From the NCBI GenBank assembly GCA_029261515.1, contig JAJDBE010000104.1, forward strand, positions 1-51,457: a stretch of DNA of 51,457 nucleotides, read 5' to 3'. The stretch comes from Nitrospinaceae bacterium (GTDB taxonomy: Bacteria; Nitrospinota; Nitrospinia; Nitrospinales; VA-1). This document shows positions 5,109-30,318 of this stretch, piece by piece. Made by a program: the position numbers and the translations under genes. Positions within the stretch are counted from its first letter, which is position 1. Every line of letters starts with the position of its first letter. The notes below the pieces were generated by a model. It saw only the letters and a list, made by a program, of their open reading frames with translations. It searched no databases and was not told the DNA's origin.

Positions 5109-5204
5109 CTCAACCTTCCTCAAAATAGAGACAATCACCTCCGCTTACAAAGAATCACGACAACTTGAATTTCCGCCGGTTAAATACCGGAAAAGTAACT
5201 TGAG

Positions 5205-5234
5205 TTGGACTTCACCCTCTCTAAACCCTATAAT
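5205..5234 (+). promoter_or_regulatory. Candidate sigma70 promoter (TTGGAC-18 nt-TATAAT) upstream of the glycosyltransferase gene
   Basis: The -35 element ttggac is at 5205-5210 and a perfect -10 tataat is at 5229-5234. It lies in the 239-nt gap after asnB. A 7-bp hairpin (agggaac/gttccct, 5287-5304) follows in the leader. Confidence 0.3.
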
Positions 5235-5347
5235 AGAATTGAGAAGAGTTTGATTTTATTGGCTTTAAATGACTCAGCGTTTGTTCAGGGAACCCATGTT
5301 CCCTTGAAGCAATCCGGCTTCCCTCCAAAAAGTTAGTTTCATTCACG

Positions 5348-13277: not shown

Positions 13278-13305
13278 TTGACACTGTAGAGGCTTCTGCT
13301 ATGAT
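13278..13305 (+). promoter_or_regulatory. Candidate sigma70 promoter (TTGACA-16 nt-TATGAT) driving riboswitch 1
   Basis: A consensus -35 ttgaca is at 13278-13283 and tatgat is at 13300-13305. It lies about 20 nt upstream of the riboswitch P1 stem. Confidence 0.5.
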
Positions 13306-13530: not shown

Positions 13531-13556
13531 CCATTCCCTTAGAATGGTTTTTTTTT
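13531..13556 (+). terminator. Candidate attenuator terminator of riboswitch 1 (short hairpin plus U9)
   Basis: ccattc (13531-13536) pairs with gaatgg (13542-13547) across a 5-nt loop, followed by nine T (13548-13556). The stem is only 6 bp, so strength is uncertain. aaggg (13510-13514) could pair with ccctt (13536-13540) as an alternative structure. Confidence 0.5.
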
Positions 13557-13588
13557 GCCCTTTTTCCCACTGGAACGAGGCATTTCCG

Positions 13589-14617
13589 GTGGCAGAATCA
13601 ATCACATTTTCCGATCAGGGTGTCACCCGACCTGGGCCACTTGCGTTCGATAAACAGCCGCTTGCGACTCGACGCACACGCTCTGTCCGCAGCGTATGCC
13701 CCCTCCTTTTCCGCATTACCTGTCTTATCGTTCTGACGCTTGTTCTTTTTCAACCTGCCAGCGGTTGGTCTGAAGAAAACCCATCGTCTTCCCCACAAAG
13801 AATCGTCTCCATGTCTCCCGGCATCACCGAAATCCTGTTTGCCCTGGGCGTGGGCGACCGGGTAGTGGGAGTCACGGATTTCTGCAACTACCCTGAAGCC
13901 ACAAAATCAATCGCCAAAATCGGCGGCTTATTAAACCCAAGTTATGAAACGCTGATTACTCTCAAGCCCGATCTCATCGTCCATCAACCCGACAGCCACA
14001 AGGTGGATAATTTCGTGGAAAAACTCGGCATTCGGGGATTGCCAGTATCCATGCTCTCACTGGAGCAGATATTCGATACGATACAAACGATCGGCGCCGC
14101 CACAGGCAGTGACAAAAAAGCCGGGGAATTGATCCGGCAAATGAAGGATGAAATCCAGTCCTACCGCACCCGGCTGGCAGGGATTTCGACAAAATCCGTT
14201 CTGCTTGTACTGGGAATCAGCAACCATTCCATGCGTGACATTTACGGCGTCGGACCCAATACCTATCTGGACGAACTCCTGACCATCGCCGGAGGAGAGA
14301 ATCTGCTGGCGGACTCTCATTCGTCCTATCCGAAAATTTCCAAGGAATTCATCATTCACAAATCGCCGGAAGTCATCATCGAAGTCGGACCCACAAGAAT
14401 TTTGACCAGTGAGGCCAACATAAGCCGGAAAGCCGGCTGGAAAAAGTTTTCCACCATTCGCGCGGTAAAAAATAATGCCATCCATTTTGTCGCCAGCGAT
14501 TACGTCCTCATCCCTGGCCCGCGTCTCATCAATATCATCGCAGACTTTGCCAAAGCCATTCATCCCGGAGTTTTCCAGAACGTCGCGCCTTCAACAAGCG
14601 GGAGTACTTCCAAATGA
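13589..14617 (+). CDS. btuF: Periplasmic corrinoid-binding protein of an ABC importer (BtuF-like)
   Basis: RIVSMSPGITEILFALGVGDRVVGVTDFCNYPEA...LKPDLIV is typical of BtuF/FhuD-type class III binding proteins. The track start ATG 13544 sits inside the terminator hairpin and U-tract. I prefer GTG 13589, which has GAGG 8 nt upstream. A hydrophobic signal-like segment (LLFRITCLIVLTLVLF) is present. Confidence 0.82.
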   Translation: MAESITFSDQGVTRPGPLAFDKQPLATRRTRSVRSVCPLLFRITCLIVLTLVLFQPASGWSEENPSSSPQRIVSMSPGITEILFALGVGDRVVGVTDFCNYPEATKSIAKIGGLLNPSYETLITLKPDLIVHQPDSHKVDNFVEKLGIRGLPVSMLSLEQIFDTIQTIGAATGSDKKAGELIRQMKDEIQSYRTRLAGISTKSVLLVLGISNHSMRDIYGVGPNTYLDELLTIAGGENLLADSHSSYPKISKEFIIHKSPEVIIEVGPTRILTSEANISRKAGWKKFSTIRAVKNNAIHFVASDYVLIPGPRLINIIADFAKAIHPGVFQNVAPSTSGSTSK

Positions 14618-15396
14618 GTGCACCCATTTTACAACTCCAGGACGTTTCATTCGCTTACCAAAAGGACCCTGTTGTCAAACAAGTTTCTCTCAATATTCAT
14701 CCTGGCGAGTTTGTCGGCATTCTGGGGCCGAACGGGTCCGGCAAATCCACTCTGTTGAAATTAATGGGAGGTCTTCTAAAAAACGATTTGGGAAGTGTGC
14801 TCTTTAAGGAAACAGAGCTTGCTCAATATTCGAGAAAGCGTTTGGCCCAATCCATCGCCTGGATACCACAGGAACATCCCATGGTCTTTCCGTTTCGGGT
14901 TGCGGAAATCGTCCTCATGGGGCGTCATCCCTACCTCTCGCCATTGACGTTCGAAACGGAAAAGGATTTCGACATCGCGGGCCGGGCCATGGAAATCACC
15001 GACACCACGCATTTGTCCGGGCGCTCCTTCAATGAAGTCAGCGGCGGCGAAAAACAGCGCGTGGTCATCGCCAGCGCTCTGGCTCAGGAGCCGGAAATCA
15101 TGCTTCTCGACGAACCGACGTCGGCGCTGGACATCAAATACCAATTGGAAGTTCTGAATATTCTAAAACGCCTGAATCAAGAAAATGGCATGACGCTACT
15201 GCTGGCCATGCACGACCTGCACCTAGCCTCTAAATTCTGCCAACGCCTGATTCTCATCAACCAGGGACAAATTGTTAAAGACGGAACTCCGGAAGAGGTT
15301 TTGCAAAAAGAAGTACTCGAAAAAGTGTACGACGTTCGCATCAAACTGTTTCGCGATCATGAAGACGGTAGCGTCATGATCTCCCCGGAGTCGTGA
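14614..15396 (+). CDS. btuD: ABC transporter ATP-binding protein (BtuD/FepC-like)
   Basis: Walker A is GPNGSGKST, the signature is SGGEKQRV, and Walker B is LLDEPTSALD. The start overlaps the btuF stop as ATGA. Confidence 0.9.
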   Translation: MSAPILQLQDVSFAYQKDPVVKQVSLNIHPGEFVGILGPNGSGKSTLLKLMGGLLKNDLGSVLFKETELAQYSRKRLAQSIAWIPQEHPMVFPFRVAEIVLMGRHPYLSPLTFETEKDFDIAGRAMEITDTTHLSGRSFNEVSGGEKQRVVIASALAQEPEIMLLDEPTSALDIKYQLEVLNILKRLNQENGMTLLLAMHDLHLASKFCQRLILINQGQIVKDGTPEEVLQKEVLEKVYDVRIKLFRDHEDGSVMISPES

Positions 15397-16433
15397 TGCA
15401 CACGTTGAGTTTACCCATGATGAACCGCAGACGTTATCTATCGACCATCGGATGGTTCGGGCTGTTTTTTCTCGTGACGCTGGTCGCCGCTCCATTGATC
15501 GGTTTCACCCACATTGACCTTGGCAAAGCCCTGTCCAGCGAAATCGAATTTTCTGAGAACGTGGATGCCATGATCCTGTTCCTGGCGCGTCTGCCAAGAG
15601 TTCTATTGGCGGCCATCACCGGCGCGTCTTTAGCTGTTGCGGGTGCCGTGTTTCAAGCCATTTTGCGGAACGACCTCGCCGCTCCGATCACTCTTGGCGT
15701 TTCCAGCGGTGCGGCCTTCGGCGCGGTGCTGGCCATCAGCATGGGATTGTCCTTCACCGTTCTGGGGTTTTCCAGCATTCCGGTCGCGGCTTTTTTAGGA
15801 GCATTGGGAGCCATTACTCTCGTCTTCAGTCTGGTGAGAACCCGGCAAGGGGAATTGCCAACGTCAATGGTTCTTCTTGCAGGTGTGACGGTTAACTTCT
15901 TTTTCGCCGCAATGGTCATGTTCATTCATTATCTTTCAGATGTCACGCAATCGTTCCGCATCGTCCGCTGGCTGATGGGGGGACTCGACATCACCGATTA
16001 TCAGACCGTATTGTCAATTTGTCCCCCTGTTGTAATAGGAATGGGCATTCTGGCCTACATCGCCCGCGACCTGAACCTCATCAGCACCGGTTCGCAATCG
16101 GCTTTAAGCCGTGGCGTGGACGTGCCCAAAATACAAAAGCTGGGACTGGTCAGTGCTTCATTGATTACTGGAGCGGTCGTCGCTGTTTGCGGCCCCATCG
16201 GTTTTGTTGGCTTGATGGTCCCGCACATGGTGCGTCTACTCATCGGGCCGGATCAACGTTTGCTGATTCCCGCGTCGATGCTGTTCGGCGCCAGCTTCTT
16301 AATCATCTGTGATACCGTCGCCCGGACCGTCATTGCCCCGACGGAAATTCCTGTGGGCGTCATCACCGCTTTGATCGGCGGACCGTTTTTCGTGTGGCTG
16401 CTCAAAAAACAACATTGGATGTTCGGCAAATGA
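15393..16433 (+). CDS. btuC: FecCD-family ABC permease (BtuC-like)
   Basis: About 10 TM segments are visible. RLPRVLLAAITGASLAVAGAVFQAILRN and the C-terminal IPVGVITALIGGPFFVWLL are FecCD/BtuC hallmarks. It overlaps the ATPase gene by 4 nt. Confidence 0.9.
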   Translation: MMHTLSLPMMNRRRYLSTIGWFGLFFLVTLVAAPLIGFTHIDLGKALSSEIEFSENVDAMILFLARLPRVLLAAITGASLAVAGAVFQAILRNDLAAPITLGVSSGAAFGAVLAISMGLSFTVLGFSSIPVAAFLGALGAITLVFSLVRTRQGELPTSMVLLAGVTVNFFFAAMVMFIHYLSDVTQSFRIVRWLMGGLDITDYQTVLSICPPVVIGMGILAYIARDLNLISTGSQSALSRGVDVPKIQKLGLVSASLITGAVVAVCGPIGFVGLMVPHMVRLLIGPDQRLLIPASMLFGASFLIICDTVARTVIAPTEIPVGVITALIGGPFFVWLLKKQHWMFGK

Positions 16434-17941
16434 CTGCAAAAACTTTAATGATCCAGGGCACAGGTTCCGGCGTCGGCAAAAGCATCATCACTGCCGCGTT
16501 GTGCCGGTATTTTTACCGGGAAGGATGGCGCGTGGCTCCTTTCAAGGCGCAAAACATGTCGCTCAACTCCTTCGTCACCGAAGACGGAGGCGAATTGGGC
16601 CGCGCCCAGGCTTATCAGGCGGAAGCCTGTGGCATCAAACCGCATGTGGCTATGAACCCCATCCTGCTGAAACCCAGCGGCGACAACCTGTCGCAGGTCA
16701 TCGTCATGGGAAAAGTGACGGAAAACCGCGATGCCAAAAACTATTATGCCCAGCACAACAAGCACAAGGAAGAAGTTCGCAATGCCTTCGGTCAATTGAG
16801 CCGCGACTATGATCTCATCATCATGGAAGGCGCCGGCAGTCCCGCTGAAATCAATCTCAAGCAATACGATCTGGTCAACATGCCAATGGCAAAGATGGCG
16901 AAAGCGCCGGTCCTCATCGTCGGTGACATTGACCGCGGCGGGGTGTTCGCCTGGATGAAGGGAACATTCGATCTCTTGACTGAAGAGGAAAAAGATCGCG
17001 TGGCCGGGTTCATCATCAACAAATTCCGTGGCGACATCAATCTGCTCAAACCCGGACTGGAGCAATTTGAGGAAATGGTCGGCAAACCCATTCTCGGAGT
17101 CATTCCCTACTCCCGCGACTTGTTTGTGGATGAGGAAGACGCGATCCCGGCGGCCAACCATCCAGCCATGCAGAATGAAACCGCTCCGCTCGATGCCGCC
17201 GTTATCTGGTATCCCCGGATTTCCAATTTCACCGATGTGTCCCCTCTAGCCGCCGACCCCTCGGTCAATTTGCGTTATGTTTCGCATTCGGCGCAACTGG
17301 GGAATCCCGATCTCATCGTCCTTCCGGGAAGCAAGAATACGATTGACGATCTGACGTTTTTAAATAACAACGGTTTGGCAAAAACCATCAGCAACCGGTT
17401 TCACTCAGGCTGTGTCCTGCTTGGCATTTGTGGAGGATTCCAGATTCTGGGGAAAACAGTACGCGATCCGAACCATGTCGAAAGCAGGCTTACTGAAGCG
17501 GATGGTTTTAACTTATTCGATTTTGAAACAACTTTAACACCGCATAAAAATACTTGCCAGGTCCGGCAAACAACCGTAGCCAGTGTTATTTTTAAGGAAG
17601 GGTTGACCGTCGAAGGCTATGAAATTCATATGGGGGACACCCGGTTCAAGACAGAATATCCTGCACTATTCGCCAATTCAAACGGAGACCACTCTCTCCA
17701 TACGGGAATCACCAATCAAGACGGCACATTGGTGGGAACCTACCTCCACGGTTTTCTCGACAGTGATGAATTAAGAAACGGTTTCCTCAAACATGTGCGT
17801 TCTTTGCGGGGTTTACCTTTTTCTGAGAAAACATTCAGCTATCGGGAATTTCGACAGGAACAATTCAACCGCTTGGCGAAACTGGTGAGCGATTCTTTAA
17901 ATATAAAACAAATCGAAGAAATCATCCATGGCACATGGTGA
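16430..17941 (+). CDS. cobQ: Cobyric acid synthase
   Basis: LMIQGTGSGVGKSIITAALCRYF...FKAQNMSLNS is the CobQ/CbiP N-terminus. A C-terminal GATase domain carries GICGGFQ and YLHG. ATG 16430 overlaps the btuC stop as ATGA, so I prefer it over the track start 16394. Confidence 0.95.
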   Translation: MTAKTLMIQGTGSGVGKSIITAALCRYFYREGWRVAPFKAQNMSLNSFVTEDGGELGRAQAYQAEACGIKPHVAMNPILLKPSGDNLSQVIVMGKVTENRDAKNYYAQHNKHKEEVRNAFGQLSRDYDLIIMEGAGSPAEINLKQYDLVNMPMAKMAKAPVLIVGDIDRGGVFAWMKGTFDLLTEEEKDRVAGFIINKFRGDINLLKPGLEQFEEMVGKPILGVIPYSRDLFVDEEDAIPAANHPAMQNETAPLDAAVIWYPRISNFTDVSPLAADPSVNLRYVSHSAQLGNPDLIVLPGSKNTIDDLTFLNNNGLAKTISNRFHSGCVLLGICGGFQILGKTVRDPNHVESRLTEADGFNLFDFETTLTPHKNTCQVRQTTVASVIFKEGLTVEGYEIHMGDTRFKTEYPALFANSNGDHSLHTGITNQDGTLVGTYLHGFLDSDELRNGFLKHVRSLRGLPFSEKTFSYREFRQEQFNRLAKLVSDSLNIKQIEEIIHGTW

Positions 17942-18669
17942 ACTTTTTTTCAGCTCTGGGATTTCTGACCATCATTCCCATGCCCAAAAAGGCATTCAGG
18001 CAAGATGGCCGTCAGATATTGTATTTTCCGCTAGTCGGGTTGTTGATCGGAGCGTTGCTATTCTGCGTCGATCAAGTATGCGCCGCATTCACCTTTACCG
18101 AAGTTCGGGTGGTCATCGACACCCTATTTCTCGCCGCCATTTCGGGAGCGCTGCATCTCGACGGATTAGCGGACACCGCCGACGGTTTGTTCTCGCACCG
18201 GAGCAAAGAGCGGAAACTGGAAATCATGAAAGACCCGCGAATAGGGGTCATGGGGACCCTGGTCGTATTTTTTGTTCTGGCGCTCAAAATGGCGGGACTC
18301 GCGGGATTGAAAAATTCGGGATACGAAATCTGGCTGTTCATCGCTCCGGCGTTGGCGCGCGGCAGCCAGGTTATCGGGCTCGTCTTTATGGATTACGCAC
18401 GCAACGACGATGGCAAGTCGCACCTGTTTTTTCAAAAAGGCAATTACCGGCTATTGGCCTTCATCCTGATCCCCATTGCCCTGCCCTTTTGGCTGTCGCT
18501 GGCAACGGGATTCATTGTTCTGGTCTTATTCTTGACGATGAACGTTTTGCTTCTCTGGTTTTTTCAGAAGCAAATCGGCGGCATCACGGGAGATACATTA
18601 GGGGCGGCAACAGAAATCAATGAAGCGTTGTTCCTTGTGACCGCAGGGATTTTATTTTTTAACTCATGA
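17935..18669 (+). CDS. cobS: Adenosylcobinamide-GDP ribazoletransferase (cobalamin synthase)
   Basis: ALGFLTIIP...LVGLLIG...GALHLDGLADTADG are CobS signature motifs in a multi-TM protein. It overlaps cobQ by 7 nt. Confidence 0.93.
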   Translation: MVNFFSALGFLTIIPMPKKAFRQDGRQILYFPLVGLLIGALLFCVDQVCAAFTFTEVRVVIDTLFLAAISGALHLDGLADTADGLFSHRSKERKLEIMKDPRIGVMGTLVVFFVLALKMAGLAGLKNSGYEIWLFIAPALARGSQVIGLVFMDYARNDDGKSHLFFQKGNYRLLAFILIPIALPFWLSLATGFIVLVLFLTMNVLLLWFFQKQIGGITGDTLGAATEINEALFLVTAGILFFNS

Positions 18670-18697: not shown

Positions 18698-19942
18698 ATG
18701 ACGAAAAAAACTTTTCTCATTACCGGCGGTTGCAGAAGCGGCAAAAGCCGGCACGCGCTGAAATTAGGGAATCTATTTCCGGGCCGCAGAGTCTACCTCG
18801 CTTCAGCCGAGCCTCTGGATGAGGAAATGGAAGAGCGTATAAAAAAACACCAGATAGAACGCGGAACCGACTGGATCACGATCGAAGAAGCGCTCGATCC
18901 TTCTTCGGTCTTAAAAAATGAAACCGCCAAGGCATCCGTGCTGATTCTCGATTGCCTCACTCTTTGGATCAGCAACATGATGATGAAAGATCTAAATCGC
19001 GAATCCATCTTGAAAAAAGTGGATGAGTTGATGGATGAATGCAAACGCTTTCAGGGGACAGTCATCCTCATCACCAACGAAGTGGGCGCCGGCATCGTCC
19101 CCGACAATGAACTCAGTCGCAGTTTCCGCGACATTGCCGGAGAGACCAACCAGAAGGTGGCTTTCAAATTTGATGAGGTGGTGCATATGGTTTCCGGCAT
19201 TCCTGTCACCATCAAATCCGAATCGCCTCAGGCTCCGTCCGAAGCAAAAGATTCTCCGCACGAATTTTCCCAGGAGAAAAAACAAGGCCTATACGAAGCG
19301 ATCTACAAGAGGAGGGATGTTCGTCATTTCATTTCCCGCCCGGTTGCCCCGGAAGTTCTGGGACGAGTGCTCGATGCGGCGCACCACGCGGGTTCTGTTG
19401 GATTCATGCAGCCCTGGAACTTTCTGGTCATCGACGATGAAAACGTAAAAAAGAAAGTGGCGCGAAATTTTAAAAAAGCCAGTGACGAAGCCTCGGAAAA
19501 ATTTTCCGGTGAAAAACAGGAGTTATACAAGTCGCTGAAACTGGAAGGCATAACGGAAGCCTCTGTCAATATCTGCATCACCTGCGACAGCAAGCGATTC
19601 GGCCCGAACGTTCTGGGGCGGGACACCATCAAGGAAACGGACCTTTTCAGTACTTGCTGTGCCGTACAAAATTTTTGGCTGGCCGCCCGTGCAGAAGGGC
19701 TGGCGGTGGGATGGGTCAGCATCCTTTCTCAGAAGCAACTCAAAAAGGACCTGGGCATACCGGAACATGTATTTCCGGTCGCTTACCTGTGCCTCGGACA
19801 CACGGAAGAATTTTATGAAAAACCAATGCTGGAATCGGCGGGTTGGGCCAACCGCCTGCCACTCAGGGATTTAATTTTTTACAACAAGTGGGAGGGAGAT
19901 CCGATCGGCCCTTCAATCCCGCTTCCTGGTCCAGTTCTATAA
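18698..19942 (+). CDS. cobU-bluB: Fusion protein: adenosylcobinamide kinase/guanylyltransferase (CobU, aa 1-~173) plus 5,6-dimethylbenzimidazole synthase (BluB, aa ~197-414)
   Basis: The N-terminal part, LITGGCRSGKSRHAL...ITNEVGAGIVP, is the CobU/CobP P-loop. The linker is SESPQAPSEAKDSPHEFSQEKKQ. The C-terminal part is LYEAIYKRRDVRHF...AAHHAGSVGFMQPWNFLVI...AVQNFWLAARAEGLAVGWVS, the BluB branch of the nitroreductase fold. It is one uninterrupted ORF with no in-frame stop or internal ATG at the junction. Confidence 0.9.
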   Translation: MTKKTFLITGGCRSGKSRHALKLGNLFPGRRVYLASAEPLDEEMEERIKKHQIERGTDWITIEEALDPSSVLKNETAKASVLILDCLTLWISNMMMKDLNRESILKKVDELMDECKRFQGTVILITNEVGAGIVPDNELSRSFRDIAGETNQKVAFKFDEVVHMVSGIPVTIKSESPQAPSEAKDSPHEFSQEKKQGLYEAIYKRRDVRHFISRPVAPEVLGRVLDAAHHAGSVGFMQPWNFLVIDDENVKKKVARNFKKASDEASEKFSGEKQELYKSLKLEGITEASVNICITCDSKRFGPNVLGRDTIKETDLFSTCCAVQNFWLAARAEGLAVGWVSILSQKQLKKDLGIPEHVFPVAYLCLGHTEEFYEKPMLESAGWANRLPLRDLIFYNKWEGDPIGPSIPLPGPVL

Positions 19943-21117
19943 TGCAAACTTTAGCCAACAGTAAAGAAAAAATGCCCGCCTTAGCTTCTGAAATGGAGCT
20001 GATGAATGCGGCTCATGGGGGAAATCTTGCGGAAGTGTGCCGAGCCACAGGGCTTAACACACGGAACATTCTCGACTTCAGTGTCAATCTCAATCCACTG
20101 GGTTCTCCATCCTCTATGGAAGATTTATATTCCCAATCGTTTCATCGTTTGCAGGAATATCCCGATCCTGATTGCCGTATTTTCAAGCGTGACTTGGCGA
20201 AAACCCTGGGAGTTGCAGAAGATAATCTTGTCATTACCAATGGTTCCACCGAACTTATTTATCTCCTACCAAAACTTTTAGATCCCGGCAAAGAGGTGTT
20301 GATAGCGACTCCCTGTTTCTCAGAATACGCACACGTATTTGAGCAGGAAAATTTTGTCATTCACATTTTCCCTCTCGACCGGGAAAATGATTTTTCTTTT
20401 AATCTCGATACCTTTCTTACATATATTGAAAATTACCCCAACGTGGGCGCTATTGTGGTTGGTCATCCGAACAACCCCACGGGAGAACTCCTGCCCCGAA
20501 ATTCACTAGAGGAACTTTGTTCTTTTTGTGAACGGGGAAATATTTTGCTCATTGTCGATGAAGCTTTCATCGACTTCGTTGCTCCTGAAAACTCGTTCCT
20601 AAAGTTTCTATCCTCTTGCTCCAATTTAATTTTGATTCGATCGTTCACCAAGTTTTACTCGATTCCCGGCCTGCGCTTGGGTTATGGAATCATGGCGCCG
20701 GAACTGGCAAATAAAATCGAGTCTTACCGTCCAACGTGGTCGGTCAATGTGTTGTCGCAGTTGATCGGCTCGGCAGTTCTTTTCGACAGAGAGTTTCGGC
20801 AAAAAACCAGAAGTTACGTGGAAGAAGAGAAAAATTTTCTGGCGAGCCAACTCAGCAAAATTCCTTTTTTAAAAGTTTTTTCGTCCGACGCTAATTTCAT
20901 TCTCTTCCAGCTACTTCCCGAAAGTAATACAGAGCCGGATATATTTTATTTGGATCTCTTACATAACGGAATTTTGTTAAGAAACTGCGGCAATTTTACC
21001 GGTCTGGATGAGAGTTTTTTCCGCATCGCGGTTCGCGGTAGAGAAGATAACCAGCAATTGATTTCCCACATCCAGAAATTTTTTCAAAAGACAGAGGGCA
21101 AAGGGCTATGGATCTGA
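19942..21117 (+). CDS. cobD: L-threonine-O-3-phosphate decarboxylase
   Basis: Similarity to Salmonella CobD as I recall it runs along the whole length: AHGGN, DFSVNLNPLG, HPNNPTG, DEAFIDF and the PLP-Lys motif SFTKFYSIPGLRLGY. The start is ambiguous: ATG 19942 (TAATG overlap with the previous stop) or downstream Met codons before AHGGN. Confidence 0.9.
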   Translation: MQTLANSKEKMPALASEMELMNAAHGGNLAEVCRATGLNTRNILDFSVNLNPLGSPSSMEDLYSQSFHRLQEYPDPDCRIFKRDLAKTLGVAEDNLVITNGSTELIYLLPKLLDPGKEVLIATPCFSEYAHVFEQENFVIHIFPLDRENDFSFNLDTFLTYIENYPNVGAIVVGHPNNPTGELLPRNSLEELCSFCERGNILLIVDEAFIDFVAPENSFLKFLSSCSNLILIRSFTKFYSIPGLRLGYGIMAPELANKIESYRPTWSVNVLSQLIGSAVLFDREFRQKTRSYVEEEKNFLASQLSKIPFLKVFSSDANFILFQLLPESNTEPDIFYLDLLHNGILLRNCGNFTGLDESFFRIAVRGREDNQQLISHIQKFFQKTEGKGLWI

Positions 21118-22064
21118 TCTGGCAAATCGCCATCGCATTTATTCTCGATCTGATCCTCGGCGATCCCCGAGGATACCCGCACCCGGTGCGGATCATCGGA
21201 TTCCTTGCCAAAAGACTGGAAAGCTTGACCCGGCATTATTTTCCCAATCTTTTTCTCGCAGGGGCCATCACCACAATTTTTATTGTTGGCGGAACTTTTG
21301 TCTGCGGCTTGGCCCTGCTTAGCGGATTGAGCTTGTTACACCCTTTTGCAGAAACCGCAGTTTCTATTTTCCTCATCTACACCTGCCTGTCGGCACGCAG
21401 TTTGTACGATGAGAGCCTTCCCGTTTTACACGCATTGAAGCAGGACCAGATAAACCTCGCACGAAAGCGCTTGTCGCGAATCGTTGGCCGGGACACAAAG
21501 AATTTGAATCCAAAAGAGATCGCCCGCGCCACGGTGGAAACCGTTGCAGAGAGTACCGTGGATGGAATTATCGCCCCACTATTCTATGCATTTATTGGCG
21601 GAGCGCCTCTGGCCCTCGCGTACAAGGCAATCAACACGCTGGATTCCATGTTTGGTTACAAAAACGCTGCTTATAAAAAATTTGGGATGATCCCCGCCCG
21701 TCTCGACGATGCGGCCAACTGGGTTCCCGCCCGGCTGGGAGGCGTTATCATGGCCATTGCCGCAGCGGTCAGCGGTTTCGATGGAAAACGTTCGTGGAGC
21801 ACCCTTCAACGCGATGGCGCCAAGCACCTCAGCCCCAATGCGGGGATTCCTGAATCGGCAGTCGCCGGAGCGCTGGGCATCCAGCTTGGCGGATCAAGCT
21901 TCTATGGTGGCCAGCGGGTGGACAAGCCTTGTATAGGAAGAAATCAAAAAGAAATTGCCGTGACAGATATTTCACATAGTCACAAGATCATGTTCGTCTC
22001 TTCAGCTTTAGCTTTAGTAGCACTCATGGTCTTAAAAAAAATAATGGAGAATTTTATGCTGTAA
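21108..22064 (+). CDS. cbiB: Adenosylcobinamide-phosphate synthase
   Basis: The N-terminal LDLILGDPRGYPHPVRIIG is the CbiB/CobD(Pd) signature. The protein is membrane-embedded. It overlaps cobD by 10 nt. Confidence 0.93.
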   Translation: MDLIWQIAIAFILDLILGDPRGYPHPVRIIGFLAKRLESLTRHYFPNLFLAGAITTIFIVGGTFVCGLALLSGLSLLHPFAETAVSIFLIYTCLSARSLYDESLPVLHALKQDQINLARKRLSRIVGRDTKNLNPKEIARATVETVAESTVDGIIAPLFYAFIGGAPLALAYKAINTLDSMFGYKNAAYKKFGMIPARLDDAANWVPARLGGVIMAIAAAVSGFDGKRSWSTLQRDGAKHLSPNAGIPESAVAGALGIQLGGSSFYGGQRVDKPCIGRNQKEIAVTDISHSHKIMFVSSALALVALMVLKKIMENFML

Positions 22065-22084
22065 ACATTTTCATTAGTGCCAAA

Positions 22085-22230
22085 CGTTCCGGTTCAGGGA
22101 AGTCCGGTGAAAGTCCGGCACTGCCCCGCAACTGTAAATGGGAACGAAAACCGCATCTTTAGCCACCTTTCTTGCCGGAGGGGAAGGCGCGGTGAGTAGG
22201 CCGCCCAAAGTCAGGAGACCTGGCGGAACG
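22085..22230 (+). promoter_or_regulatory. Cobalamin (B12) riboswitch 2
   Basis: The core is GGUUCAGGGAAGUCCGGUGAAAGUCCGGCACUGCCCCGCAACUGUAA. AGCCACC...GGGGAAGGCG and AAGUCAGGAGACCUGGC are also present. P1 pairs cgttcc (22085-22090) with ggaacg (22225-22230). It starts 21 nt after the cbiB stop. No U-tract terminator follows. A small hairpin, ccttc (22241-45)/gaagg (22250-54), overlaps the btuB Shine-Dalgarno sequence. Confidence 0.93.
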
Positions 22231-22262
22231 CATTATAAATCCTTCGCGGGAAGGGGCAAACT

Positions 22263-24113
22263 ATGCTTTGTTTTAGATTGTTTTCGTGCTGTTTTTTGTT
22301 TCTATTATCAATCCTTGTACTGTCACCCATGAATCACGTGGCCGAAGCTACCCAGAAGTTAAATACACTTTCAGTCATATCCACCCGTGCTCAGTTTGGG
22401 GTGAATGAAGCCCCGACTTCCGTGTCGGTCATCACCAAAGAGGAAATTGAGCAAAAGCAGGGGTTTCAGGTGAAAGACCTTTTAAAAGAAGAACTGGGAA
22501 TGGATGTGATTCAAAACGGCCCGCCGGGAACCAATACCAGTGTTTTCATGCGCGGCGCGGGTTCCAGCTCGACACTGGTACTGGTGGACGGGGTGCAAGT
22601 CAACACAAATACCGTTGGGTCTTTCAACTTTGCCGATCTTACCGTCGATAATATCGAGAAGGTCGAAATTCTGAGAGGACCGCAAAGCACTCTCTGGGGA
22701 TCGGATGCAGTCGGAGGGGTGATCAACATCATCACAAAAAAAGGCACCGGAGCGCCAACTCATTCCTTCTCTTTTGAAGGCGGAAGTTTTGGAACCTTCA
22801 AGGAAACAGGAAACAGTTCGGGCGATCTCGGCTTCATGGATTATTCCCTTAGCATTTCCCGGACCGACAGCGAAGGTTTCTCCGCCGCCAATGAGGATCG
22901 CGGGAATAATGAGCAGGATGGCTATGAAAATACGACTCTCTCGACCCGGCTGGGCCGTAATTTCCTTGAAGACGGACGCGTCGAGTTCATTGGACGCTAC
23001 ACCAAATCCCAGGTGGATTTCGATTCCTTCGGCCCCGTCGATGGCAAAGACTTTAGCAAACTGGATGCATTGTATCTGGCGGCGCCTGTGCAAAAATCCT
23101 TTTTCGGCATCTGGGACGTGAAAGTCAATCCCACGTTCGCCTACGACGATCTCGATTCGTCCAATAACTCTTCCACCCAGTCATTTATCATCAACCGCAC
23201 CTACGGCGTGGACGTGCAGAATAATGTCGAAATCACCGACTTTCTCTCCACTACGTTTGGTTTCGAATATGAAATCCGCAATGGCGTGAACGAGAATAGC
23301 AGTCTGAGGCAAAACATTTACAACCAGGGATATTATCTTCAGACGCAGTTGCACCCGGGAGAACGGATCGTGTTGACGGCGGGATTCCGTCACGACGTCA
23401 ACTCGGTGTTTGAAGACCCGACCACTTATAAGTTTGAAGGCGCGTACCGGATACTGGAAACAAACACCCGCATTCGCGGGGCCTACGCCACCGGCTTCCG
23501 CGCCCCAAGTATCAACGAACTGTTCTTCCCCAACTTTGGCACTCCAACCCTGAAGCCGGAAGAGAGCGAAGGCTGGGAAGTGGGGATCGATCAATCCTTA
23601 TTGGAAGGCGTTGTGCAGGTGGGCGTCACTTATTTCCAGATGGACTTCGATAATTTAATCGAAACAGTGGACCTTGGCGGATTCACTTTCCGCGCGCAAA
23701 ACGTGGCCAAAGCCACCACCGAAGGCGTGGAAACTGCCATTGATGTCGCATTACCCAAGAATTTCAAGGTCGCTTTGAACTACACCTGGCTGAAGGCAAG
23801 GGATGATGACGATCAACCCCTACAACGCCGGGCCGAGCATAGTTTTTCCGCCAATTTGAGCCATACCTGGGACAAGAAACTTCATTCTCTGGTCGGCGTT
23901 CGCGTACGAAGCGATACCCGCTCCAACAACACGGGGACACAGACCGCGGATGCGTTCACCGTGGTGCGTGCGGCGCTGAGTTATAAGGTCAATAAAAACC
24001 TCAAGGTTACCGCGCGTGGCGAAAACCTTTTTGATGAACAGTATGAAGAAATCTTCGGATTCGGAACCGCGGGGATTTCCGGGTATGCCGGGTTCACCTG
24101 GACATTCAACTGA
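22263..24113 (+). CDS. btuB: TonB-dependent outer-membrane corrinoid receptor
   Basis: A signal peptide is followed by a TonB-box-like LNTLSVIS. The plug motifs are VSVITKEEIEQ...FMRGAGSSSTLVLVDGVQVN...IEKVEILRGPQSTLWGSDAVGGVINIITK. The C-terminus is barrel-like. The gene sits directly behind a B12 riboswitch. Confidence 0.9.
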   Translation: MLCFRLFSCCFLFLLSILVLSPMNHVAEATQKLNTLSVISTRAQFGVNEAPTSVSVITKEEIEQKQGFQVKDLLKEELGMDVIQNGPPGTNTSVFMRGAGSSSTLVLVDGVQVNTNTVGSFNFADLTVDNIEKVEILRGPQSTLWGSDAVGGVINIITKKGTGAPTHSFSFEGGSFGTFKETGNSSGDLGFMDYSLSISRTDSEGFSAANEDRGNNEQDGYENTTLSTRLGRNFLEDGRVEFIGRYTKSQVDFDSFGPVDGKDFSKLDALYLAAPVQKSFFGIWDVKVNPTFAYDDLDSSNNSSTQSFIINRTYGVDVQNNVEITDFLSTTFGFEYEIRNGVNENSSLRQNIYNQGYYLQTQLHPGERIVLTAGFRHDVNSVFEDPTTYKFEGAYRILETNTRIRGAYATGFRAPSINELFFPNFGTPTLKPEESEGWEVGIDQSLLEGVVQVGVTYFQMDFDNLIETVDLGGFTFRAQNVAKATTEGVETAIDVALPKNFKVALNYTWLKARDDDDQPLQRRAEHSFSANLSHTWDKKLHSLVGVRVRSDTRSNNTGTQTADAFTVVRAALSYKVNKNLKVTARGENLFDEQYEEIFGFGTAGISGYAGFTWTFN

Positions 24114-24155
24114 TTTCCCAAAATGACTCGATTCATCAATTACCCGGAGGAGACT

Positions 24156-24740
24156 ATGACTTCAGACAAATATTTTAAAATTAAACTGCTTGCGGGTCTC
24201 GTCGTTTTAATGGTCCTGACCCGCTACTCAATATTTCGGCCACTCGGGTTGCCAAGTGCGACCCTGGTGGTTTTCTTCATCGCCGGCATTTACCTAAGGC
24301 AATGGATTTTTCCGGCCCTGCTTATCGGCGCCGCCGGCTTCACCGATTACTTGTCTGTTCAAGGTGGCAGCGGCATTTGGTGCATCACTCCTGCCTATAG
24401 TTTTCTGATCCCCACCTACCTCGCTTTATGGTTCGGAGGCCGCAGATTTCAAAGCCTTCAAACAGAGGACTTACGACAGGCAGCTTCTATGGCCTTGGTT
24501 TTATGGATCGCTTCCACTGCCGCGTTTATGATTTCCAACGGCAGTTTTTACGCACTCTCCGGACATGAGGTTTATGAAAATATGAATTTGCTGGATTACA
24601 TCCAAATTCAAATCAATCGCTATCCGGTCTACATTTTAAAACCGTTTCTCTATTTAGGAACTTTGATTGCGATTTTTTATAAGGGAATTTTTCCACAATA
24701 CTTAAAATCGAAAGAATTGTCAGCCAGCATTCCTAAATGA
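24156..24740 (+). CDS. Uncharacterised ~6-TM small membrane protein (candidate corrinoid transporter, BtuM/DUF6580-like)
   Basis: The protein is 194 aa from ATG 24156, which has the strong SD GGAGGAG at 24146-24152; the track start is 24123. Six hydrophobic segments are visible, and there is a single Cys (C76, codon 24381-24383). Its stop overlaps the cbiA start as ATGA. No catalytic motif is recognisable. Confidence 0.6.
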   Translation: MTSDKYFKIKLLAGLVVLMVLTRYSIFRPLGLPSATLVVFFIAGIYLRQWIFPALLIGAAGFTDYLSVQGGSGIWCITPAYSFLIPTYLALWFGGRRFQSLQTEDLRQAASMALVLWIASTAAFMISNGSFYALSGHEVYENMNLLDYIQIQINRYPVYILKPFLYLGTLIAIFYKGIFPQYLKSKELSASIPK

Positions 24741-26140
24741 AAACTGTCATAAAAAAATTGGATCGCTCTCCTCCCGGCTTTGTTATTGCCGGAACCCACA
24801 GCGGAGTCGGAAAAACTTCCATCACCGTGGGATTCATGCGCCTGTTGACCCGGAGGGGGGTGCGCGTCCAACCGTTTAAAGTGGGCCCGGATTACATCGA
24901 TCCGGGCCATCACACCCGCGCCTGTGAACAACCCGCGTACAATCTGGATTCCTTCATGAGTTCACGCAAGTATGTACAACGCCTTTTTCATGATGTCGCG
25001 CAGAAGTCGGATGTTGGCGTTGTGGAAGGGGTGATGGGTCTGTTCGATGGCGCATTTTCCAAAAAGGAGAAAGGCTCCACTGCGGAAATCGCCAAACTCC
25101 TCAACCTTCCGGTCATCCTGATTTTTAACGGCGAGGCCATTGCCCGTTCTGCCGCAGCTCTGGTCAAGGGTTTTCTGGAGTTTGACCCTGACGTGAAGTT
25201 TCTGGGAGTCATAGCCAACCGGGTCACCCATCCCAAACATGCCGAACTTCTAAAACAAGCCATCGAACGCTACACCCGCGCCCGGTTCTTGGGGCACCTG
25301 CCCTCTTCACCAGAATTATCCATTCCCAGCCGCCATCTCGGTTTATTTCAGAGCCATGAGAATCAATCCACGCTGTACGACCAATGGGCGGACCATTTGG
25401 AAAAACACCTCGACATCGATGCTATTTTGAGGAAAGCCAGGGTTCCGCAAAAGATTCCTTCCCGAAAAAAGGCGCCCACCGTTTTTCGCTGGCCTCGAAG
25501 GCCGTCTTCATTTTCCTTTAAAGTGGCAATTGCCAGGGACGACGCTTTTCAATTTTACTATCAGGACACCTTGGATTGCCTGGCGCACAACGGCGGCGAA
25601 ATCCATTACTTTTCTCCCCTCCGGGATAAAAAATTACCCGATGGTACCGATTGGATTTATCTCCCAGGCGGATATCCCGAACTGTTCGCAAAAAAATTAA
25701 GCTCCAACCAAAAAATGTTGCAAGTCATCCGAACCTTTGGAGAAACCGGAAAAGTGATTGTCGGAGAATGCGGCGGCCTGATGTATCTGGGGCAATCCAT
25801 TACAGACGAAAAAAATAAAGTGTTTCCGATGGCGGGGTTATTCGACTTCTCCACTTCGATCCAAAATAAGAAACTGACGCTCGGCTATAGGAAGTTGGCT
25901 TACCGTCCAAACGACGACTCAAAAAAAAATCTAGTTTTAACCGGACATGAATTTCATTCTTCCAGTTTCACGGAGAATGAGGAAGCTCCCCAGATGACTC
26001 AAAAATCGAAAGAAAACAGCCGCTCGGTTAAAGACGGGTACCGGGTCAAAAATTCTTTCGCTTTGTATTCACATATTTATTGGTCGAGTTCTCCAGGGTG
26101 GATGAATTATATTTTGAATACCGTGCAGAGGACCCAATGA
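24737..26140 (+). CDS. cbiA: Cobyrinate a,c-diamide synthase
   Basis: FVIAGTHSGVGKTSITVGFMRLLTRRGVRVQPFKVGPDYIDPGHH and VEGVMGLFDG are the CbiA/CobB N-domain. The C-terminal GATase part carries ECGGLMYLG. Confidence 0.93.
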   Translation: MKTVIKKLDRSPPGFVIAGTHSGVGKTSITVGFMRLLTRRGVRVQPFKVGPDYIDPGHHTRACEQPAYNLDSFMSSRKYVQRLFHDVAQKSDVGVVEGVMGLFDGAFSKKEKGSTAEIAKLLNLPVILIFNGEAIARSAAALVKGFLEFDPDVKFLGVIANRVTHPKHAELLKQAIERYTRARFLGHLPSSPELSIPSRHLGLFQSHENQSTLYDQWADHLEKHLDIDAILRKARVPQKIPSRKKAPTVFRWPRRPSSFSFKVAIARDDAFQFYYQDTLDCLAHNGGEIHYFSPLRDKKLPDGTDWIYLPGGYPELFAKKLSSNQKMLQVIRTFGETGKVIVGECGGLMYLGQSITDEKNKVFPMAGLFDFSTSIQNKKLTLGYRKLAYRPNDDSKKNLVLTGHEFHSSSFTENEEAPQMTQKSKENSRSVKDGYRVKNSFALYSHIYWSSSPGWMNYILNTVQRTQ

Positions 26141-26691
26141 AAAAGCGACCTCCATCCGATCCCAGGAAACGCAAAGGCCTGATCATCGTCAACACCGGCG
26201 AGGGCAAGGGGAAATCCACAGCCGCTTTTGGAGTGGCTTTGAGGGCCGCTGGCAACAAAATGAATGTGTTCATCATGCAATTCATGAAAGGCAACTGGAA
26301 GGCCGGAGAAAGGAAATCTTTTGAGAAGCTCGGGGATTATGTCGAAATCATACCGATGGGAGACGGGTTCACCTGGGACACTCAAAACCCGGAACAGGAC
26401 CAGAAAACGGCAAGAAAAGCCTGGGACATCGCCGTTGAAAAATTAAACAGCGGCAACTACGACCTGGTGGTTCTCGATGAAATCAATTACGTTCTTGATT
26501 ACGGTTTTTTTCCGCTTGATGAGTTTCTACAAGCGATCCAAAATAAACCGCCTCATGTGCATGTGATCTGCACAGGGCGAAACGCGCCTGAAGGACTCAT
26601 CGAACTTGCGGATCTGGTCACTGAAATGCGCAGCGTCAAACATCCATTCAAGGACCAGCAAATTCCAGCGCAAAAAGGCATTGAATTCTAA
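26137..26691 (+). CDS. cobO: Cob(I)yrinic acid a,c-diamide adenosyltransferase
   Basis: KGLIIVNTGEGKGKSTAAFG...QFMKG...LDE are CobO/BtuR motifs. ATG 26137 overlaps the cbiA stop as ATGA, so I prefer it over the track start 26080. Confidence 0.93.
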   Translation: MKKRPPSDPRKRKGLIIVNTGEGKGKSTAAFGVALRAAGNKMNVFIMQFMKGNWKAGERKSFEKLGDYVEIIPMGDGFTWDTQNPEQDQKTARKAWDIAVEKLNSGNYDLVVLDEINYVLDYGFFPLDEFLQAIQNKPPHVHVICTGRNAPEGLIELADLVTEMRSVKHPFKDQQIPAQKGIEF

Positions 26692-26695
26692 AGTA

Positions 26696-28102
26696 ATGAT
26701 ACCGATGATGAATTTAACTTCTCTCAAACAGGCCATGAAGAAACGCCCGCTTCGCTACACGGTCGTGCTGTCTGTCATTGTACATATGGCGGTCCTTGTT
26801 TTTTTCCAATCCTGGGAACTGCTTCCCATGAAGAAAAACGAAATCCCGAAAAATACCATTCGCATTAAAACCATTCAAAAACCCGAAGAAATCAAGCCCG
26901 CGGAAAAACAGATTGTCCGGGAAAAGAAAATTATGCATATAAAACCTCCTGAAAAACGTCAACCAGTGTTAAAATTTCAAGAGGTTATGACCAAAGCTCC
27001 ATTAGTAAAATCCGCAATGATTGACAAGCCCAGACACGTGCAGATGAAACAAAGAACTCCTGAAAACACCCTAAAGCCTGATTTCAAAATTCAACCTGTG
27101 GCGATATCCCAACCAGACGCGATCAGCCATCGTTTAAATAAAGTCCCATTGAAATCGCAAAAACTAAAATTTCTATCAGACACTCGACCCACTGCCATTT
27201 TCACAAAGCCCCATGCGAAACTTCCGCAAACGATTTCGCTTGCCGCCAAACAGCCCGCTAATTCGATTTTGACATTCCAAGCACAGAAAGCTCCCGTTCA
27301 GACGGCAATTCATTCTTATGCAATAGCACAAAACTTAAGCCCGCAAAAGGCCGTGCAACCGCAACGGGTTTTTGTAAAAATGGAATCCATCACAAAACCC
27401 TCTGTTGTCCGAATATCAAAATCAAAGGAACCCGAAAGAACCCAACCCGTCAACCCCGTTCAACCCAGCGACCTGCGACAACTTGCATCCGGTTCCACAA
27501 ACGCTCCGGTTTCTCAGAGGAAATCCGATTTTGCTACTTCAACACAAAAAATGACGGGGATCGAGGCGCGGTCCATTCAAGGTTTAACCAGCCAGTCACA
27601 AACGAAAATTAAGTCCGCATCCGCTGTCGTACCCGAAACAACCTCTTCCTCTGTTCGGCACATAGCGCCTTTACAAATGGCATCCATTCCGGCTGATTTT
27701 TCAGAAATCATTCCTGGCGCTGGAAAAGAGCCGGTTTCCGAACCGACCAATCCCAATGCAAACTCCACCGAAAACCTGCAAGAGAATTCTACTGAATTTC
27801 TGGGAGAAGCCCGGAAGCAGTTTTCGTCTCAGGTCTGGAACAGAATCGCCCAGTTCAAACACTATCCCAGAATTGCCAGAAACCGCGGATTTGAAGGGCA
27901 GCCGGTCGTCGCTTTCACGCTCGGCCATAACGGAGAACTCCTGGAAATTTCCGTTGAGCAACCCTCTCCTTTCAAATTACTGGATCAAGCCGCACTGAAA
28001 GCAGTCCGGGCGGCAAGCCCTTATCCTTCGATTCCCAAATCGCTTAATTTGCAATCCATTCGGTTTAAATTACCCGTATCCTTTATACTGGAGGAACCAT
28101 GA
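26696..28102 (+). CDS. TonB-family energy-transducer-like protein with unusually long linker
   Basis: The N-terminal TM anchor is LRYTVVLSVIVHMAVLVFF. About 330 aa of K/P/Q/S/T-rich linker follow. The C-terminal TonB domain is YPRIARNRGFEGQPVVAFTLGHNGELLEISVEQPSPFKLLDQAALKAVRAASPYPSIP. ATG 26696 is 4 nt after the cobO stop. Confidence 0.75.
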   Translation: MIPMMNLTSLKQAMKKRPLRYTVVLSVIVHMAVLVFFQSWELLPMKKNEIPKNTIRIKTIQKPEEIKPAEKQIVREKKIMHIKPPEKRQPVLKFQEVMTKAPLVKSAMIDKPRHVQMKQRTPENTLKPDFKIQPVAISQPDAISHRLNKVPLKSQKLKFLSDTRPTAIFTKPHAKLPQTISLAAKQPANSILTFQAQKAPVQTAIHSYAIAQNLSPQKAVQPQRVFVKMESITKPSVVRISKSKEPERTQPVNPVQPSDLRQLASGSTNAPVSQRKSDFATSTQKMTGIEARSIQGLTSQSQTKIKSASAVVPETTSSSVRHIAPLQMASIPADFSEIIPGAGKEPVSEPTNPNANSTENLQENSTEFLGEARKQFSSQVWNRIAQFKHYPRIARNRGFEGQPVVAFTLGHNGELLEISVEQPSPFKLLDQAALKAVRAASPYPSIPKSLNLQSIRFKLPVSFILEEP

Positions 28103-29256: not shown

Positions 29257-30318
29257 ATGACCGAAATAATCAAGCACACTCTCAATCAAATCCAGGCGGT
29301 TGATCCACGCAATCTGGAAATTGCCCAGGAACGCCTGGATATCCTGACAAAACCTCCCGGCAGTCTGGGACGCTTGGAAGAGTTCGCCCGCCGCTACGCC
29401 GCCATCAAGGGGACGGACTCTCCTCGGGTCCGCAACAAAACGGTTTTTGTTTTTGCCGCCGACCATGGGATCGTCGCCGAAGGAGTCAGCGCTTATCCTG
29501 CGGAGGTCACCCCGCAGATGGTGCAGAATTTTCTGAATGGCGGAGCGGCTATCAATGTCCTGGCGCAACATGCAGGAGCGGAGGTGGTCGTGGTCGATAT
29601 CGGCGTCAACTTCGATTTCGAAGCCTGCCCGAACCTGATTCACAGGAAAATCGCTCCCGGAACCCGCGACATGTCCAAGGAACCCGCCATGACCCGCCAA
29701 CAGGCGGAAGAAGCCTTGCAAACCGGCATCGAACTGGCCGGACAATGGGTAGAGAAGCAGACCGACATTTTTGCCACCGGCGACATGGGAATAGGCAACA
29801 CCACTGCCGCCGCCGCCATCATGTCTCTATATGGAAACAAAACCCCGCGCCAGGTCACCGGCAAGGGAACCGGCATCGATGAGGCCACGCTTTCCAGAAA
29901 AATCCAGCTAATTGAACAGGCCATCCGCATCAATCAGCCAGACCCGAAAGACCCAATCGATGTTCTTGCCAAAGTGGGCGGGTTCGAGATCGCCGGTATC
30001 GCCGGACTTATTCTAGGAGCGGCGGCCAACAAAACCCCCGTCGTCATCGACGGATTGATCTCCGGCGCCGCCGCCGTATGCGCCTGTCACATGAATTCCG
30101 CTATTCGGGATTACCTCTTCCCTTCGCACAAATCCCAGGAACCGGGGCATGATGTGTTTTTCCAGACTTTAGCTTCCCCTCCCCTGTTTGATTTCGGCAT
30201 GCGCCTGGGAGAAGGCACCGGAGCCGTTCTGGCTCTGAACATTCTCGAAGCGTCCGTAAAAATCTACTCCCAAATGGCCACCTTTAGAGAAGCGCACGTT
30301 TCCGCCAATGCCATTTAG
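29257..30318 (+). CDS. cobT: Nicotinate-nucleotide--dimethylbenzimidazole phosphoribosyltransferase
   Basis: LTKPPGSLGRLEE, FAADHG, GDMGIGNTT and MRLGEGTGA are canonical CobT motifs. Confidence 0.95.
   Translation: MTEIIKHTLNQIQAVDPRNLEIAQERLDILTKPPGSLGRLEEFARRYAAIKGTDSPRVRNKTVFVFAADHGIVAEGVSAYPAEVTPQMVQNFLNGGAAINVLAQHAGAEVVVVDIGVNFDFEACPNLIHRKIAPGTRDMSKEPAMTRQQAEEALQTGIELAGQWVEKQTDIFATGDMGIGNTTAAAAIMSLYGNKTPRQVTGKGTGIDEATLSRKIQLIEQAIRINQPDPKDPIDVLAKVGGFEIAGIAGLILGAAANKTPVVIDGLISGAAAVCACHMNSAIRDYLFPSHKSQEPGHDVFFQTLASPPLFDFGMRLGEGTGAVLALNILEASVKIYSQMATFREAHVSANAI

Follow-up and report, generated by a model that had tools for sequence, protein, structure and literature searches.

CobU forms a homotrimer and BluB a homodimer, and the known enzymes of both families with solved structures are separate proteins. 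CobU of Salmonella enterica (PDB 1CBU/1C9K) and CobP-type proteins such as 8YEP are free-standing polypeptides of ~180 aa, and the 5,6-dimethylbenzimidazole (DMB) synthase BluB of S. meliloti (PDB 2ISJ/2ISK/2ISL) is free-standing with ~227 aa. Here, we analyzed a stretch of 51,457 nucleotides from a Nitrospinaceae bacterium (GenBank assembly GCA_029261515.1, contig JAJDBE010000104.1, positions 1 to 51,457 of the forward strand), referred to as the window, in which a single gene at 18698..19942 (+) encodes both enzymes, so that the C-terminus of CobU runs into BluB. All positions given below without a further source are positions of the window.

Among fusions of BluB, only the BluB/CobT type was found to be discussed in the literature searched. 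Like the window protein, BluB/CobT2 of Propionibacterium freudenreichii combines BluB and a nucleotide-loop enzyme in one polypeptide with a spacer, in a cobalamin-specific and O2-dependent context, and channelling of DMB has been reported for it (PMC4657239). However, BluB is the N-terminal part of that protein and the C-terminal part of the window protein. Furthermore, CobT2 consumes DMB, whereas the partner found here, CobU, acts on the other branch of the pathway and CobT is encoded by a separate gene. A Pfam scan detected no DBI_PRT (CobT) domain in the fused open reading frame (ORF), which thus does not belong to the BluB/CobT type.

For the organisms concerned, Nitrospinae have been described as B12 auxotrophs that may salvage cobinamide (PMC8026999). 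Nitrospina gracilis is a B12 auxotroph carrying the steps from cobyrinate onward; it releases DMB, even if the medium is replete with B12, and co-culture increased its '5,6-DMB synthase' transcript (PMC11428151).

One reading frame for CobU and BluB

The gene at 18698..19942 (+) is a single ORF of 414 aa with an ATG start codon, a TAA stop codon and zero internal stop codons. The region of the junction (19217-19285) translates to SESPQAPSEAKDSPHEFSQEKKQ and contains neither an in-frame stop codon nor ATG, GTG or TTG; the closest in-frame start-type codons are located at aa 154-164, within the CobU domain. An internal translation start giving free BluB was therefore rejected, as the linker has no in-frame ATG, GTG or TTG and the consensus no conserved methionine.

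The CobU domain comprises aa 1-173 (18698..19216, +), as delimited by Pfam, NCBIfam and the alignment to 1C9K and 8YEP. Pfam CobU (PF02283) matched aa 7-172 with 191 bits against a cut-off of 27 (E 1.5e-56), covering model positions 2-168 of 168, and the NCBIfam CobU equivalog PRK05800 (NF004469) matched residues 4-174 with 180.5 bits against a cut-off of 161. This half (aa 4-174) could be aligned over its entire length to Salmonella CobU 1C9K and CobP-type 8YEP. The P-loop GGCRSGKS, a Walker-A motif of the GGxRSGKS type, is located at aa 10-17, and H51 aligns with chain position 46 of 1C9K. We take H51 to be the equivalent of Salmonella His46, the guanylylation site bearing the covalent GMP intermediate. 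In an alignment of 46 fused homologues, G10, G11, R13, S14, G15, K16 and H51 are invariant, and H51 is conserved in at least 98% of 120 homologues.

The BluB domain comprises aa 188-414 and, together with the stop codon, occupies 19259..19942 (+), according to TIGR02476 and the alignment to 2ISJ. Besides the Pfam Nitroreductase match (aa 202-368, E 1.7e-27), the NCBIfam BluB equivalog TIGR02476 reached 251.4 bits against a cut-off of 150 (aa 190-390), while the runner-up among the nitroreductase-type NCBIfam models scored 47.8 bits against its own cut-off of 304. S. meliloti BluB (2ISJ) aligned with E 1.7e-71 and 52% identity over aa 187-398; in contrast, other nitroreductases of the PDB reached E 6e-15 at best. 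Characteristic motifs are YKRRDVRHF (aa 203-211), SVGFMQPW (aa 233-240) and QNFWLAARAEGLAVGWVS (aa 324-341); the RRDVR (aa 205-209) and GWVS (aa 338-341) contained therein are shared with S. meliloti BluB. Three residues aligned to 2ISJ, D207, R209 and S341, are invariant among the 46 fused homologues, and presumably correspond to Asp32, Arg34 and Ser167 of S. meliloti BluB, an active-site numbering that reportedly goes back to Taga and co-workers in 2007.

Continuity of the reading frame and membership of its halves in the CobU and BluB families, with matches far beyond chance, establish the gene as a real in-frame CobU-BluB fusion. The initial annotation, made from the DNA sequence alone, had described an uninterrupted ORF of 414 aa without a stop or start codon at the junction, and both statements hold, as do all motifs that it quoted and their places. 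Its assignment of the N-terminal part to CobU is borne out by the curated cut-off, the P-loop and H51, and that of the C-terminal part to BluB by the TIGR02476 cut-off and the invariant catalytic residues. Its expectation of an aerobic or microaerobic lifestyle is also in line with our results, since the O2-requiring BluB fits the aerobic, nitrite-oxidising Nitrospinota carrying the gene.

Only the extent of the linker needed correction, from the 23 residues proposed initially (aa 174-196) to ~14 residues (aa 174-187, 19217..19258, +), because BluB homology already begins at about aa 187-190, where HEFS matches the N-terminal end of S. meliloti BluB in the alignment. The sequence of this linker, SESPQAPSEAKDSP, is variable, hydrophilic and, judged by conservation and predicted local distance difference test (pLDDT) values, presumably flexible. 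Mean conservation of aa 174-196 was 0.47, compared to 0.68 and 0.80 in the two domains. The linker varies in length among relatives with the reading frame kept, and the segment corresponding to aa 174-196 measures 23-26 aa in 118 of 120 homologues. Based on the alignment of homologues, AlphaFold2 gave a model (mean pLDDT 75) in which both domains are folded with confidence, whereas the segment at aa 177-190 is of low confidence, with pLDDT below 50 at aa 177-186 and 188-190. The domains thus resemble separate modules held together by a short, flexible tether.

Distribution of the fusion and its relatives

The best 120 database matches to the window protein were all 407-440 aa long, covered 96-100% of the query and contained both Pfam domains, and all named ones among them come from Nitrospina, Nitrospinaceae or Nitrospinae. 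The cultured species N. gracilis and N. watsonii (CAI2719337.1) were added by another search, for which Nitrospina sp. 32_T5 provided the seed. Altogether, at least 141 distinct protein clusters (90% identity) of 407-440 aa carry the fusion in the same domain order, the named ones all being Nitrospinota. Identities between the window protein and the listed fused members range from 58 to 88%, the top public match having 88%. The window gene is thus a new sequence in an already catalogued, biochemically uncharacterised fusion group.

Six gene maps were fetched, including contigs of 3.25 and 3.37 Mb and the N. gracilis 3/211 chromosome; on each of the six, the fused gene was called as one gene with cobS directly upstream. 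Protein P0033 was recorded in identical form on 33 contigs, 23 of which were read. Among 1.84 billion representatives (50% identity), the same-order fusion falls into a single cluster (P0022), accompanied by P0121, a truncated fragment. By neighbour joining, the fused proteins group together in their BluB halves as one clade, whose lone "unfused" member is a 256-aa fragment from a fused cluster. From these data, cobU and bluB normally occur in fused form across the Nitrospinota sampled, and the fusion most likely originated once, either within this sampled group or at its base.

Three candidate loci for same-order fusions elsewhere, taken from a genome scan, were rejected. In a metagenome-assembled genome (MAG) of lake-sediment "Proteobacteria" (L006), the genes are separate (cbiB-cobD-cobU, with bluB following 60 nt later); if the stop codon between adjacent cobU and bluB genes of this kind were lost, the fusion would result. 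Separate genes in the order bluB-cobC-cobU-cobT were also found in an Omnitrophota MAG (L048) and an uncultured bacterium (L050). The only extra, divergent same-order case in the search of representatives was P0168, which reached 138 bits with TIGR02476 against the cut-off of 150. P0168 and P0270, metagenome proteins of 381 aa from JGI, combine CobU with a degenerate BluB-like nitroreductase domain matching in two stretches, and may represent a same-order fusion, apart from the main family, that is decaying or has been repurposed.

The relative in N. gracilis 3/211 (CCQ90420.1, WP_005007878.1, UniRef100_M1ZAV6) has 408 aa, the same order of CobU and BluB and 61% identity over 399 residues. As in the window, cobS is located upstream, and btuB, cbiA, cobO and cobT are nearby; directly downstream follows btuB in N. 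gracilis, in contrast to cobD and cbiB in the window. On the N. gracilis sequence HG422173.1 (L087, 739-6646), cobS and the fused gene adjoin a contractile-injection-system or phage-tail-like cluster on the opposite strand, comprising phage sheath, gp19-like tube, Pvc16_N and AAA ATPase genes; the window lacks this cluster.

CCQ90420.1 was deposited as 'fused bifunctional' under a name beginning 'CobU/Cob(II)yrinic acid a,c-diamide r...'. We take the cob(II)yrinic acid a,c-diamide reductase (CobR) label to be an old misnomer for BluB. The current names are "5,6-dimethylbenzimidazole synthase" in RefSeq and "Adenosylcobinamide kinase" in UniRef. The CobU-BluB architecture is therefore already recognised at the level of annotation, and the present one-function names hide it. 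In the searchable literature, no paper was found that mentions or assays a CobU-BluB fusion; the words "fusion", "fused" and "Nitrospin" are absent from the survey of cobamide genes by Shelton et al. 2019 (PMC6461909), and the genome paper of N. gracilis does not discuss B12 genes. The initial view that this architecture had not been characterised thus stands with respect to biochemistry in the literature searched, but the architecture as such had been noticed before, given the name in the N. gracilis deposit and the public clusters.

Fusions of BluB with CobT, CobO, CbiX, a histidine phosphatase (CobC-like) and, in reverse order, CobU are present in public data. BluB-CobT fusions occur in forms of ~600 aa and ~1500 aa, the long ones ranging from ~1000 to 1600 aa, and the BluB-CobO fusion bears the JGI name DMB synthase/cob(I)alamin adenosyltransferase. 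In the fusions with CbiX and the histidine phosphatase, BluB comes second. BluB fusion proteins include P0130 with 18 further cluster members, P0124, P0266, P0139 and P0172. The reverse-order BluB-CobU protein P0122 and the HAD-BluB-CobU protein P0139, both from metagenomes, contain the same two enzyme families with both halves over the curated cut-offs, but their domain order is opposite to that of the window protein, to which they are 37-44% identical; they appear to be fusion events independent of the Nitrospinota form. P0122 (449 aa) is encoded at 4587-5947 of the metagenome contigs FWPV01030194.1 and FWWL01017941.1 (L085/L086), directly downstream of genes for CbiG and three precorrin methyltransferases, and thus belongs to a probable de novo corrin producer.

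The surrounding cobalamin regulon

The fused gene is part of the first of two gene blocks in the window, each led by a cobalamin riboswitch. Riboswitch 1 (RF00174; 13318..13487, +), the leader of the btuF...cbiB block, matched the full-length model with 100.1 bits against a gathering threshold of 31.5 (E 6.4e-24). Directly upstream of it, a promoter-like site at 13278..13305 (+), TTGACA-16-TATGAT with 11/12 matches and a TG extension, is a match to the consensus only and had the top score in an 11-kb scan. Directly after riboswitch 1, a terminator-like hairpin with a T-run (13531-13547, +) overlaps the btuF-like start codon and is probably the expression platform of the riboswitch.

Eight co-directional genes with overlapping or nearly overlapping boundaries constitute block 1. 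The uptake genes encode a BtuF-like corrinoid/heme-type periplasmic binding protein (13544..14617, +; NF002894 with E 6.9e-28, under the equivalog cut-off, the TroA-like subfamily cut-off being passed), an ABC transporter ATPase of the BtuD/heme type (14614..15396, +), the start of which overlaps the btuF-like stop by 4 nt, and a BtuC-like ABC permease of the FecCD family (15393..16433, +; NF007081, E 1.2e-77). These are followed by the genes for the cobyric acid synthase CobQ (16394..17941, +; NF001989, 620.7 bits, cut-off 273), the true start of which is probably slightly downstream of the first GTG, and for the adenosylcobinamide-GDP ribazoletransferase (cobalamin-5'-phosphate synthase) CobS (17935..18669, +; TIGR00317, 140.9 bits, cut-off 110). 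A weaker terminator-like hairpin (18632-18649, +) lies inside the final cobS codons, just upstream of the fused gene; terminator-like sites overall were not clearly enriched (22 vs. 15.7 ± 4.2 in shuffles). Downstream of the fused gene, the block ends with the genes for the L-threonine-O-3-phosphate decarboxylase CobD (19942..21117, +; TIGR01140, 305.2 bits, cut-off 290.55), whose ATG overlaps the TAA of the fused gene (TAATG), and the adenosylcobinamide-phosphate synthase CbiB (21108..22064, +; TIGR00380, 223.4 bits, cut-off 165.9).

Riboswitch 2 (22073..22241, +; 82.3 bits, E 8e-19) is the leader of btuB and the genes downstream. In order, block 2 encodes a BtuB-like TonB-dependent corrinoid receptor (22263..24113, +; TIGR01779 with E 8.1e-91, under the equivalog cut-off), a hypothetical protein of 205 aa, the cobyrinic acid a,c-diamide synthase CbiA/CobB (24737..26140, +; NF002204, 495.8 bits, cut-off 254), the ATP:corrinoid adenosyltransferase CobO/BtuR (26080..26691, +; PF02572, 228.6 bits), the true start of which is probably later because the Pfam match begins at aa 32, a TonB-like protein and an EF-hand protein. 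Further downstream, the NaMN:DMB phosphoribosyltransferase CobT is encoded by its own gene (29257..30318, +; PF02277, 468.7 bits; TIGR03160, 467.4 bits, cut-off 319.3).

Thus, the window codes for corrinoid uptake and for every step from cobyrinate to cobalamin that was looked for, with the exception of a CobC-type phosphatase, and contains no genes for corrin-ring synthesis. The fused gene belongs to a large riboswitch-controlled regulon, presumably transcribed as operons, for cobalamin salvage and the late pathway. No CobC-type alpha-ribazole phosphatase was detected among the window ORFs scanned. Two ORFs had no Pfam or NCBIfam match, the 205-aa ORF between btuB and cbiA (24123-24740, +) and a 310-aa ORF (30308-31240, +) that overlaps the end of cobT by 11 nt; as the phosphatase was not found, one or the other could have an unrecognised cobamide-related function.

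Located between cobO and cobT are the TonB-like gene (26606-28102, +), whose product of 498 aa carries a TonB domain at its C-terminus, and the gene of the EF-hand protein (28099-28830, +; 243 aa, EF-hand and DUF6802 matches). At the corresponding place, the relatives L083 and L084 encode a TonB_C protein, a hypothetical protein and a small cytochrome c. Together, these genes suggest a dedicated TonB system for corrinoid uptake. At some distance, an 817-aa methyl-accepting chemotaxis protein with an N-terminal Tll0287-like sensor domain is encoded on the opposite strand (36961-39414, -), and a Tll0287-like protein is also encoded near the cobalamin cluster of N. gracilis (L087, 19301-20407).

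Function and significance of the fused protein

Nitrospinota are unable to build the corrin ring and instead salvage corrinoids, and the fused protein would serve the assembly of their cobamide nucleotide loop as a two-domain enzyme. Judged by family membership, the CobU domain would convert adenosylcobinamide (AdoCbi) to AdoCbi-P and then transfer GMP from GTP, via covalent His51-GMP, to form AdoCbi-GDP, while the BluB domain would form DMB by fragmentation of FMNH2 with O2. The separate CobT would convert DMB to alpha-ribazole-5'-phosphate, and CobS, coded directly upstream, would condense both branches to cobalamin-5'-phosphate. The fusion would have arisen once, when neighbouring cobU and bluB genes lost the stop codon and the spacer that separated them, and would have been kept thereafter. 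The advantage would be an obligatory equimolar, riboswitch-controlled co-expression of two branch-point enzymes, possibly also their co-localisation near the membrane-bound CobS.

We prefer this reading of the fusion as a co-expression device with independently acting domains and consider it quite probable, because BluB is promiscuous in its fusion partners, the flexible linker is not conserved and the fusion would originate from adjacent genes. Direct substrate channelling is unlikely. The channelling argument made for BluB/CobT2 is not transferable, as the CobU and BluB steps are non-consecutive and their branches meet only at CobS. For the same reason, the coupling of both activities proposed initially was overstated: AdoCbi-GDP, made by CobU, and DMB, made by BluB, lie on converging branches with CobT in between. 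The accompanying term "upper-loop activation" was a misnomer, since CobU activates the aminopropanol arm for nucleotide-loop assembly. In sum, the initial annotation overstated novelty and coupling, while the fusion, the identities of the domains and the implication of O2 hold.

Of the other explanations, a junction indel that merged two separate genes during sequencing or assembly is a prior possibility raised by the initial annotation and nothing more. It is refuted by the recurrence of the same single ORF in 141 clusters from independent assemblies, isolate genomes and multi-megabase contigs, by the identical protein on 33 contigs and by linker lengths that differ between relatives yet keep the frame, so that its probability is practically nil. 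Slightly more weight, though still very little, can be given to the possibility that the C-terminal domain acts not as a DMB synthase but as an ordinary flavin nitroreductase or as a cob(II)yrinic acid a,c-diamide reductase. The domain does belong to the nitroreductase superfamily, its BluB function is assigned by homology, and the deposited name of CCQ90420.1 points to the reductase, a label which we take to be a historical misannotation of BluB. Against this stand the clear pass of the TIGR02476 cut-off, with the next nitroreductase-type models below 50 bits and far under their own cut-offs, the much closer similarity to the crystallised BluB than to other nitroreductases, the invariance of the BluB-critical Asp and Ser, the present RefSeq name and the production of DMB by N. 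gracilis (PMC11428151).

A functional coupling of the domains deserves more attention. Here, the domains would communicate, with BluB, which destroys a flavin cofactor, being active only when CobU engages cobinamide or GTP, or CobU trimers bridged by BluB dimers would be the scaffold of a membrane-associated nucleotide-loop complex with CobS and CobT. The mismatch of oligomers, a trimer for CobU and a dimer for BluB, is compatible with this idea, as are the CobU/BluB fusions that arose independently in either domain order (both cut-offs are passed by P0122 and P0139), the tightly constrained length of the linker segment (aa 174-196) and the maintenance of the fusion across the whole phylum; in addition, BluB/CobT2 is a precedent for the benefit of a BluB fusion (PMC4657239). 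Conversely, the reactions are non-consecutive, with a separate CobT between DMB and the CobS condensation, and the linker is unconserved in sequence and predicted to be disordered. Fusion of BluB to many unrelated cobamide enzymes points to a general effect of co-expression or gene adjacency and not to a specific CobU-BluB mechanism, and the release of DMB by N. gracilis into B12-replete medium (PMC11428151) argues against a tight gating of DMB synthesis. We therefore regard functional coupling as improbable. A defined assembly, such as two CobU trimers linked into a hexamer by three BluB dimers, in which corrinoid or GTP bound to CobU would gate the destruction of flavin by BluB, or which would nucleate a membrane-bound nucleotide-loop complex with CobS and CobT, appears to be a slightly longer shot still. 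If true, such a gating assembly or membrane complex would tie the output of DMB to the supply of salvaged corrinoids.

Several points weigh against independently acting domains with a single origin. The activities of both domains are attributed by homology throughout this protein family, and the link from the DMB release of N. gracilis to the fused protein is indirect. The 14-residue tether between a CobU trimer and a BluB dimer could impose a specific higher-order assembly that affects function, and the independent fusions in both orders could signal a specific functional interaction. With respect to the origin, the tree of the CobU halves is nearly but not quite as clean as that of the BluB halves, two short standalone CobU representatives being placed inside the fused clade.

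In the ocean, nitrite is oxidised mainly by Nitrospinota, which rely on other microbes for the corrin ring of B12. Both halves of the fused protein are textbook enzymes, so that the finding extends existing knowledge and overturns none, adding one more case to the recurrent fusions of BluB with other cobamide enzymes; its trimer-dimer assembly is possibly an interesting structural problem. For annotation, it means that the cobinamide-activating enzyme and the DMB synthase of Nitrospinota have to be recorded as one polypeptide, since under the single-function labels of most databases pathway reconstructions seeking a separate cobU or bluB can wrongly score a step as missing. The fused protein is probably responsible for the DMB released by N. 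gracilis, a metabolite that Nitrospina provides to its community.

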